DNA from: a virus
Taxonomy: Duplodnaviria > Heunggongvirae > Uroviricota > Caudoviricetes
Direction: 5' to 3' (one strand)
IMG/VR virus record: IMGVR_UViG_2534682324_000033
Length of the DNA stretch: 18,500 nt
Of this stretch, positions 8,730 to 9,398 are shown one piece after another (position 1 is the stretch's first letter; every line of letters starts with the position of its first letter). Under the pieces are notes generated by a model, which was given only the letters and a program-made list of their open reading frames with translations, ran no database searches and had not been told where the DNA came from. A program made the translations under genes and the position numbers.

Positions 8730-9398
8730 TCACTTTTCCGATACAACACGGCGGGAAGAATCAGTAATCTGTCGAACAATATCCCGGTGCTTGTTCAGCT
8801 CCCGCAGCGCGGCGCAGACTCGCTCCCACTTCTGAACATCACTTTTCGCCCTGCGCAGCGCCAGGTTTGCCCTGCGCAGGGACGGAAAAATCAGCTCATC
8901 TGCTTGCGTTTCGGTAAACGATGGCAACGGCTGCACAATGTCCGCCACAGTTTCTGTTTTAATTTCTTCCTGTGTTGCGGCTTCCCGGACTGGTAACGCA
9001 GCACCTGCTGGCTGAGGAAAGGCCTTACCATCATTTTTCGTTACCGGCGCGGCTTTCGGATCTGCTGGTAAATTACCCCCCGACATGCAGTAACGAAATT
9101 TACCGTTCTGATTAACGCGTGCCAGCCGCCCCGTTGCGGTTACCACCGCCAGCGTGGAAGCAACCTTGCGAGTACTGACGCCGAACTTACCCGCCAGTTC
9201 CTCACACGTTTTAGCACCATCCTGACCGATAAACTCAACCATCATGTCTGCGGTAACTTTTGGAGCGACCTCTTCGGTTACCACATCCGGCGCTTCAGGT
9301 TGTAGTGCCTGCCCTTCGGTTACCCCGGCTTCACCTTCGACAGCCAGAAACCAGGTGTGACCCGTTTTATCAACAACGCCATTTTTTTGAGTTCCCAC
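8730..9398 (-). CDS. second reading frame of a tandem winged-helix protein (downstream of an A7 run); probably part of one gene with 9320-9499
   Basis: Frame contains ...[53 protein letters not shown]..., a repeat of the N-terminal domain in 9320-9499; no credible independent start or Shine-Dalgarno. Confidence 0.5.

Follow-up and report, generated by a model that had tools for sequence, protein, structure and literature searches.

A gene of the DUF1627/YdaW family in the defective Escherichia coli prophage Sp12/CP-933P is divided between two reading frames at a run of seven adenines, and this division is very probably the result of a recent, lineage-specific pseudogenization in which one A:T pair was lost from an A8 run. 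The gene lies in the 18,500-nt stretch of viral DNA analysed here (IMG/VR record IMGVR_UViG_2534682324_000033; hereafter the window). The locus is already known, as it is publicly annotated as a frameshifted pseudogene: the RefSeq/PGAP annotation of EDL933 lists it in CP-933P as EDL933_RS12290, 'DUF1627 domain-containing protein, frameshifted', with a pseudogene flag. The record of strain Sakai, in which the prophage is Sp12, annotates the 222-aa piece alone (ECs_2274) and gives it no pseudogene label. Both loci match the window at 100% over 861 nt and carry the identical lesion. An earlier note on the window, made from the letters alone, had left three readings side by side, namely a homopolymer sequencing error, a recent inactivation or slippage-dependent expression, and the evidence below separates them.

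The T7 run that the earlier note had placed on the plus strand at 9382-9388 is present in the sequence. On the coding strand its context is GAA CTG TGG GAA CTC AAA AAA ATG GCG, where the A7 tract codes for Lys38, Lys39 and the first base of codon 40. The frame that opens at ATG 9499 does degenerate past NELWELKK, as had been described; residues 1-39 of its 59-aa product are the authentic N-terminus and residues 40-59 are an out-of-frame tail of 20 aa. The −1 frame carries on the protein, and the part of the 222-aa open reading frame (ORF) that lies below 9383 corresponds to residues 40-256 of the ancestral protein. Profile searches with the 59-aa ORF gave a match to PHROG 630 that was confined to residues 1-43 and a match to PHROG 16668 along its whole length (1-59/59, E 1.4e-40), whereas PHROG 630 joined both halves of the restored protein (positions 1-252/253, E 1.6e-131). 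That eight or five adenines would restore a protein of about 256 aa was borne out by editing the tract length in silico, which gave a single ORF of 256 aa for A8 and of 255 aa for A5, and none for A6. The tract length by itself is unremarkable, there being 12 A/T runs of at least 7 nt in the window; the fusion of two frames into an end-to-end match to a family profile is far beyond chance. In the restored protein the lesion coincides with the end of the third helix in domain 1, as judged from AlphaFold2 (AF2) secondary structure. The features of the locus are collected in Table 1.

Table 1. Features of the frameshifted gene and its neighbours, with positions in the window
Feature	Position	Strand	Remarks
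A7 homopolymer	9388..9382	minus	T7 on plus strand at 9382-9388; from sequence and run list
59-aa ORF	9499..9320	minus	from ATG 9499; stop at 9322..9320
222-aa ORF, −1 frame	9398..8730	minus	opens at GTG 9398; ECs_2274 in Sakai annotation
Whole frameshifted DUF1627/YdaW-family gene	8730..9499	minus	770 nt here; 771 nt (256 aa) when intact
Second winged-helix domain	9087..9251	minus	residues 84-138 of restored protein
C-terminal long helix	8736..8912	minus	residues 197-255; conserved end of DUF1627 region
O-like replication protein	11249..10272	minus	annotation and profile matches
DnaC-type helicase loader	9525..10265	minus	same operon, upstream; annotations, PMC2669165
DUF977/Ren-like exclusion protein (LygF)	8319..8714	minus	same operon, downstream; Pfam DUF977, PHROG 142

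The restored protein belongs to the DUF1627/YdaW family (PF07789, PHROG 630), scoring 331.6 bits against Pfam DUF1627 (E 7.5e-100, residues 91-245) where the curated cut-off is 28.1 bits. PHROG 142 (Ren-like) weakly matched residues 86-137 (E 4.6e-6), and matches to helix-turn-helix (HTH) and winged-HTH families of Pfam fell below the gathering scores, clustering at residues 3-52 (HTH_11 and others) and 87-134 (HTH_PafC, FeoC). The family takes its name from ydaW of the K-12 Rac prophage, which, like the window gene, is a predicted winged-HTH protein encoded after the replication genes. One paper lists ydaW among predicted transcription factors and reports different lengths for it in MG1655 and O55:H7 (PMC9308461); in another it surfaced as a 'blocker' of RcaT, the retron-Sen2 toxin, when overexpressed (bioRxiv 10.1101/2020.06.22.160242). 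Searches of the literature for what DUF1627, ydaW or ECs2274 does yielded incidental mentions only.

The fold was modelled with AF2 from a shallow alignment (60 sequences at 82-96% identity), and the resulting model, with a mean pLDDT of 54, was used for secondary structure only. Domain 1 was predicted as three helices (4-11, 16-23 and 27-39); residues 44-80 had a pLDDT below 50, and the wing of this domain lacks a confident model. A disordered acidic linker separates the two HTH domains. Domain 2 was predicted as three helices and two strands (H84-94, H99-106, H110-122, E127-131, E134-138; pLDDT about 60-76), and a second disordered stretch leads from it to the C-terminal helix (197-255; pLDDT about 55-68), where many columns of the 60-sequence alignment are invariant. 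Foldseek against the PDB gave no match at E <= 0.001. Its compact top matches were all winged-helix domains (MarR-like, Z-alpha, FeoC and ArsR-like; 55-65 columns, rmsd 1.2-2.5 A), and its long matches were tandem winged-helix proteins (ScpB, ESCRT-II and SelB) that superposed poorly. Among solved structures, searches by sequence returned marginal matches alone (MntR, E 0.048; Z-alpha/E3, about 0.07-0.4). The tandem winged-helix architecture proposed in the earlier note is plausible: domain 2 was modelled in H-H-H-beta-beta order and domain 1 as three helices with a wing below pLDDT 50, while the Foldseek matches were all above E 0.001. The two domains are parallel, as had been suggested, at the level of motif and fold, but BLASTP detected no similarity between them, nor between domain 2 and the adjoining DUF977 protein. 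On this modelling, a tandem (winged) HTH followed by a C-terminal helix appears to be a fair description of the architecture.

The A7 tract is real. All 60 E. coli matches listed for the 861-nt region were 100% identical to it, nearly all of them labelled O157 or O157:H7, and Sakai and EDL933 are among the carriers of the exact A7 allele. We then counted exact tract lengths with a 77-nt query, in which one indel is enough to bring the identity under 99%. The context is present in 679 complete genomes, and exact matches among them numbered 287 for A7, 206 for A8, one for A9 and none for A6. Complete E. coli genomes that hold at least 80% of the window number 291, against the 287 exact A7 matches; A7 is thus the state of nearly all genomes that carry this type of prophage. 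A homopolymer sequencing or assembly error over a true A8 would be in keeping with under-calling as a common artefact, with another 1-nt homopolymer indel by which the window differs from Sakai, DEC5B and LSU61 at about 3056, and with the singleton calls of A7 that draft viral genomes show on other backbones, which could be such errors. However, the 287 complete genomes that agree on A7 come from many laboratories, and one sequencing series (CP0383xx) contains several A7 strains yet resolves A8 in DEC5B, DEC5E, LSU61 and F3113, so the methods used there tell the two lengths apart. The error reading, one of the three in the earlier note, is accordingly rejected, and we give it next to no credence.

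The A7 state is also derived. With the window allele restored to A8 as the query, matches of 100.0% over 862 nt were found in O55:H7 strains DEC5B and DEC5E, in O157:H7 strains LSU61, F3113 and PV15-279, and in JNE132847. DEC5B and LSU61 carry the intact 771-nt coding sequence in the same prophage and the same gene order; its product, WP_000450876.1, is encoded by an allele that is identical to that of the window except for one A and that forms, with A8, a single ORF. Across window positions 8300-11300, that A was the sole difference from LSU61, and DEC5B differed by that A plus two single-nucleotide polymorphisms. Published work places LSU-61 as an intermediate on the way from O55:H7 to typical O157:H7 (PMC7175801) and identifies PV15-279 as an atypical O157:H7 strain that is positive for beta-glucuronidase (PMC6256406). 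Tract length therefore tracks lineage: the O55:H7 strains DEC5B and DEC5E and the basal or atypical O157:H7 strains LSU61, PV15-279 and F3113 have A8, whereas typical O157:H7 has A7, and the comparison of homologous prophages that the earlier note had called for bears out its suggestion of a recent inactivation: the identical allele has A8 in the same prophage of ancestral and basal lineages, and RefSeq labels the A7 form frameshifted. The simplest reading of these sequences would be a single A8-to-A7 deletion on the branch to typical O157:H7, followed by clonal inheritance; nothing in the evidence contradicts the deletion itself.

The same distribution bears on whether the tract could be a phase-variable contingency switch, in which frequent changes between A7 and A8 would silence and reactivate the gene within a population. 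Both lengths do occur on identical allele backbones, and one complete genome has A9. But the tract states follow phylogeny, A8 is short for a contingency tract, and A9 was seen once and A6 never, which makes such a switch highly improbable.

Among homologues the gene is a single ORF. In active phages, PhiR5_2, phiSTEC1589-Stx1c and Shigella phage 75/02 Stx carry it ('YdaW family'/DUF1627) at the same gene position as an A8-containing 771-nt coding sequence, intact unlike that of the window. Protein homologues numbered 2240, and 105 of the 120 listed were 253 or 256 aa long. The earlier note had reasoned that its reading would fail if homologues universally carried two separate genes, and they carry one; these sequences point to one ORF as the norm of the family. 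The residues at the tract site among the listed homologues were KKN (76), KRN (32), KEN (5), KRK (3) and KKA (1), the A run being interrupted (KRN, KEN) in about a third, and a more distant homologue reads CTG AAA AAG GCT there. A gapped-pattern scan of IMG/VR, covering roughly 120 loci, gave about 100 with A8, 13 with A7, 5 with AAAGAAAA and 1 with AAAAGAAA. Because KRN, KEN, KRK, KKA, AAAGAAAA and AAAAGAAA variants occur at the site, the A run is, on these comparisons, incidental Lys-Lys-Asn coding at the end of a helix and not a conserved nucleotide signal.

Exact scans of IMG/VR returned 17 loci with A7 and none with A9 or A6. These A7 tracts are spread over several backbones of the gene, and for each backbone there is an A8 neighbour of identical or almost identical sequence. 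One A7 locus (L130) has a 5′ half in common with the window allele and, judged from that shared half, may be a recombinant; for the backbones of L129/L106 and of L067, the best-matching complete genomes all had A8. We considered recurrent independent A8-to-A7 events, as at a mutational hotspot or under selection, and set them aside, A7 on the other backbones being unreplicated in complete genomes. Rare deletions of recent date may account for those tracts, as may the under-calling of homopolymers in draft assemblies, and robust A7 status is limited to the O157:H7 allele. The occurrence of A7 on other backbones with A9 and A6 essentially absent might point to a better tolerance of A7 than of other lengths.

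The surroundings of the gene place it in the cryptic lambdoid prophage Sp12 (= CP-933P) of typical E. coli O157:H7, an assignment that rests on sequence identity: window positions 5000-18500 are identical to Sakai Sp12, and all differences from Sakai lie within 1000-4999. The best complete-genome match to the window was 99.6% over 565-18500, and no complete genome matched at 100% across the 18.5 kb. Genes on the coding strand follow the order CI-like repressor, Cro-like, YdaT, O-like, DnaC-type loader, DUF1627 gene and DUF977 (Table 1). The DUF1627 gene is thus placed in the early-right operon, between the DnaC-like and DUF977/Ren-like genes; the downstream protein matched Pfam DUF977 with E 9.4e-73.

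The element is a decaying, defective prophage. In Sp12 the integrase and the repressor are disrupted and there are several morphogenesis defects, and circularization, replication and packaging are all absent (PMC2669165); the Sakai record marks the Sp12 integrase gene (intR) as a pseudogene. The same prophage has other lesions in DEC5B (internal stops in the DnaC-like, Q and TerB genes and a frameshift in int) and in LSU61 (int/xis deleted and a stop in DUF551). O157:H7 genomes hold further DUF1627 copies with A8 in other prophages, the 861-nt region matching three to six places per genome.

We propose that replication slippage in the homopolymer removed one A:T pair from the A8 run. Standard decoding then gives a 59-aa peptide, made of 39 native residues and a 20-residue nonsense tail, and leaves the other 217 codons without a credible start; the lesion was passed on clonally and is fixed in the typical O157:H7 clone. 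The loss was presumably neutral, tolerated because the prophage was already defective and because undeleted A8 paralogues persist elsewhere in the genome. Against a fully dead gene one might set the fact that decay beyond the deletion was absent from both halves of the gene among the 60 listed O157:H7 matches (all 100%); this absence is uninformative, the clone being too young.

If the two ORFs were a genuine split, the 59-aa HTH peptide would be made alongside an independently translated protein of 222 aa or roughly 170 aa, with GTG 9398 or an internal ATG-ATG at about 9245 as candidate starts. The annotation of ECs_2274 in Sakai speaks for such an arrangement, as does PHROG 11856 (160 positions), whose match to residues 95-252 implies that a short C-terminal ORF has been called in some records. 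Reading of the sequence, however, revealed no Shine-Dalgarno motif before either start, and the interval 8600-9700 contains no promoter-like site that could serve the second half, and no terminator-like site. The 59-aa product has no wing and ends in a nonsense tail, homologues are unsplit, and in PGAP the locus is a single gene with a frameshift. We regard two independent genes as highly improbable too.

Slippage-dependent expression, the remaining reading of the earlier note, has to be divided into a programmed and an incidental form, which fared differently. A programmed and selected recoding event would set the ratio of the short HTH peptide to the full-length protein. In its favour are the slippery heptamer at the tract, the recurrence of the 59-aa product in phage and prophage records as PHROG 16668, and the fact that A7 is the sole repeated off-length in IMG/VR (17, against no A9 and no A6). 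The zero-frame heptamer, C-AAA-AAA, is near-canonical and does not follow the strict X-XXY-YYZ pattern; after the slip, the P site pairs two of three bases. The site resembles those of dnaX (A-AAA-AAG) and IS1 insA-insB, where, as in the window, a run of A in lysine codons lies at the frame overlap. But the accompanying signals are lacking: the 92 nt after the run fold no better than shuffled sequences (z = −0.53), and reading of the 20 nt upstream of the run found no Shine-Dalgarno-like (GGAGG-like) stimulator. Transcriptional slippage, whether put to use or selected against, becomes evident in many bacteria at runs of roughly 9 nt (PMC1088944), and genes that use it include those with 9A/9T runs in IS elements, Thermus dnaX and mxiE (Baranov et al. 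2005, PMC1088944); by that measure A7 would fall below the length for productive transcriptional slippage.

Known programmed or slippage systems have a conserved layout together with stimulators (dnaX) or runs of about 9, whereas the layout in the window is derived, clone-specific and without stimulators. The two-frame layout is not conserved: a single clone acquired A7 from A8, the gene is one ORF in active phages and in most homologues, and the A run is broken up in many relatives. Moreover, the host element is defective (PMC2669165), and A7 on other backbones has no replicate in complete genomes. Programmed recoding thus seems, on the phylogenetic distribution of the sequences, already largely refuted, and we consider it very unlikely.

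Incidental leakiness is a different matter. The A7 allele may be a hypomorph that makes full-length protein at a reduced level together with the 59-aa peptide, without having been selected for this; such leakage is possible, although we hold it with some doubt. In the mechanism envisaged, tRNA-Lys would slip by −1 in the P and A sites, or in the P site alone, the next codon being AAU (Asn). A −1 slip after the second lysine would read AAU-GGC-GUU and give ...LKKNGVV..., so the frameshifted chain would not differ from the ancestral protein that A8 encodes. The nearest experimental counterpart is the attB1 site of pDEST17 (TAC-AAA-AAA-GCA), which has the same heptamer in the same frame as CTC-AAA-AAA-ATG of the window and restores an ORF from which 1 nt had been deleted (Belfield et al. 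2007, PMC1851650). There, T7 overexpression in E. coli gave −1 ribosomal frameshifting of 25-60%; the RNA was homogeneous (A6), RNA-level slippage was absent and there was no validated stimulator (PMC1851650). The pDEST17 case, however, is a vector-design accident on a plasmid under T7 overexpression and does not provide a family for the window locus, and single-tRNA slips on A-AAA in IS1 and PVM amount to 0.3-1% (as cited in PMC1851650). The lack of a stimulatory structure downstream of the tract counts in the same direction, and frameshift efficiency at the window locus would probably be much lower than in pDEST17. Our search of the literature found no expression reports for the Sp12 DUF1627 locus. 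Taken with the pDEST17 precedent, some full-length product from the A7 allele is plausible, and unprogrammed slippage of tRNA-Lys on C-AAA-AAA may add a minor full-length fraction to the products of a gene that we otherwise read as a pseudogene. A further step, in which the leaky two-product allele gave full-length protein in a biologically meaningful amount and, through its altered dosage, was favoured during the emergence of typical O157:H7, is very unlikely; if it held, prophage-prophage or anti-defence interactions, for example, would have been changed.

As a case of gene decay, the locus adds one more homopolymer indel to the well-studied pool of defective prophages in O157:H7, and in that respect it matters little. 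It has three minor uses. As a clonal marker, the change from A8 to A7 cleanly sets typical O157:H7 apart from the O55:H7, LSU-61 and beta-glucuronidase-positive lineages. The tract is a natural chromosomal C-AAA-AAA site at which unprogrammed −1 frameshifting could be measured. Finally, annotators are warned that ECs_2274 (222 aa) and the 59-aa ORF of PHROG 16668 are pieces of a single gene.

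Matches to the complete genomes listed begin at window position 565, positions 1-564 lying outside the best-matching place of every one of them, and the alignment to E. coli O157:H7 Sakai ends at reverse-complement (rc) position 17411, which corresponds to window position about 1090. Together, these limits suggest that on the late/lysis side there is a mosaic junction. Sequence alignment with Sakai further revealed 71 single-nucleotide differences, all within positions 1000-4999. The same region holds a second homopolymer difference: window positions 3049-3055 form an A7 run that is one base longer in Sakai, DEC5B (O55:H7) and LSU61 (O157:H7) alike (indel at 3056, approximately 45 nt past the end of the STnc100 match), and other small indels fall at about 1096, 3961 and 4027. 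The differences in this region may reflect either genuine mosaicism or homopolymer errors in the source of the window.

Several RNA genes and toxin-antitoxin loci were located in the window (see table). The STnc100 match is flanked by the tRNA cluster and a SASA esterase gene, and the Q gene lies upstream of the three tRNA genes. DicF is adjoined by dicB and ydfC, indicating that the prophage carries a Qin-like dic module. The sok RNA belongs to a hokD/mokC type I toxin-antitoxin module that is annotated in both Sakai and EDL933. The toxin, antitoxin and CI-like genes constitute the paaR2-paaA2-parE2 locus of CP-933P/Sp12, for which bistable expression has been reported (PMC8630535).

RNA genes and toxin-antitoxin loci in the window
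Feature	Position	Strand	Match or annotation
STnc100 sRNA	3099-3271	-	Full-length Rfam match, 100.8 bits (gathering score 47)
tRNA genes (3)	4045-4291	-	Sakai annotation: Ile (CAT anticodon), Arg-TCG, Arg-TCT
sok antisense RNA	7207-7381	-	116.9 bits
RelE/ParE-type toxin, antitoxin and CI-like gene	about 12000-12900		Sakai annotation; placed by offset from Sakai locus L005 5619-6482, boundaries approximate
DicF sRNA	14227-14278	+	76.7 bits

The copies of the prophage in the other two lineages carry lesions of their own. In DEC5B, the DnaC-like, Q and TerB genes have internal stops (locus L131 8296-9036, 13371-14060 and 14697-15125), and in LSU61 int/xis is deleted and the DUF551 gene contains a stop (locus L132 1213-3639 and 10579-10884); TerB is broken in LSU61 as well as in DEC5B. 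The inactivating lesions in DEC5B and LSU61 are different and independent of each other.

The homologues of the DUF1627 product include three proteins (P0034, 403 aa; P0080, 372 aa; P0005, 277 aa) of which two, both from ENA, are fusions of DUF1627 to the neighbouring DUF977 in which the stop has been lost or frameshifted, and one, from NCBI, contains a 39-residue internal tandem duplication in the wing-2 region. A DUF1627 gene with 83% DNA identity to the E. coli prophage gene is also present in PP818812.1 ('Actinobacillus phage vB_Apl-pPE4'; locus L002 1513-2265), where lambdoid Ead/Ea22-like genes lie on its flanks. The recorded host of this phage is Actinobacillus pleuropneumoniae, an assignment that looks odd. 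Finally, the sole complete genome with A9 at the DUF1627 tract is that of E. coli MBT-5 (NZ_CP058682.2, 2508617-2508695).
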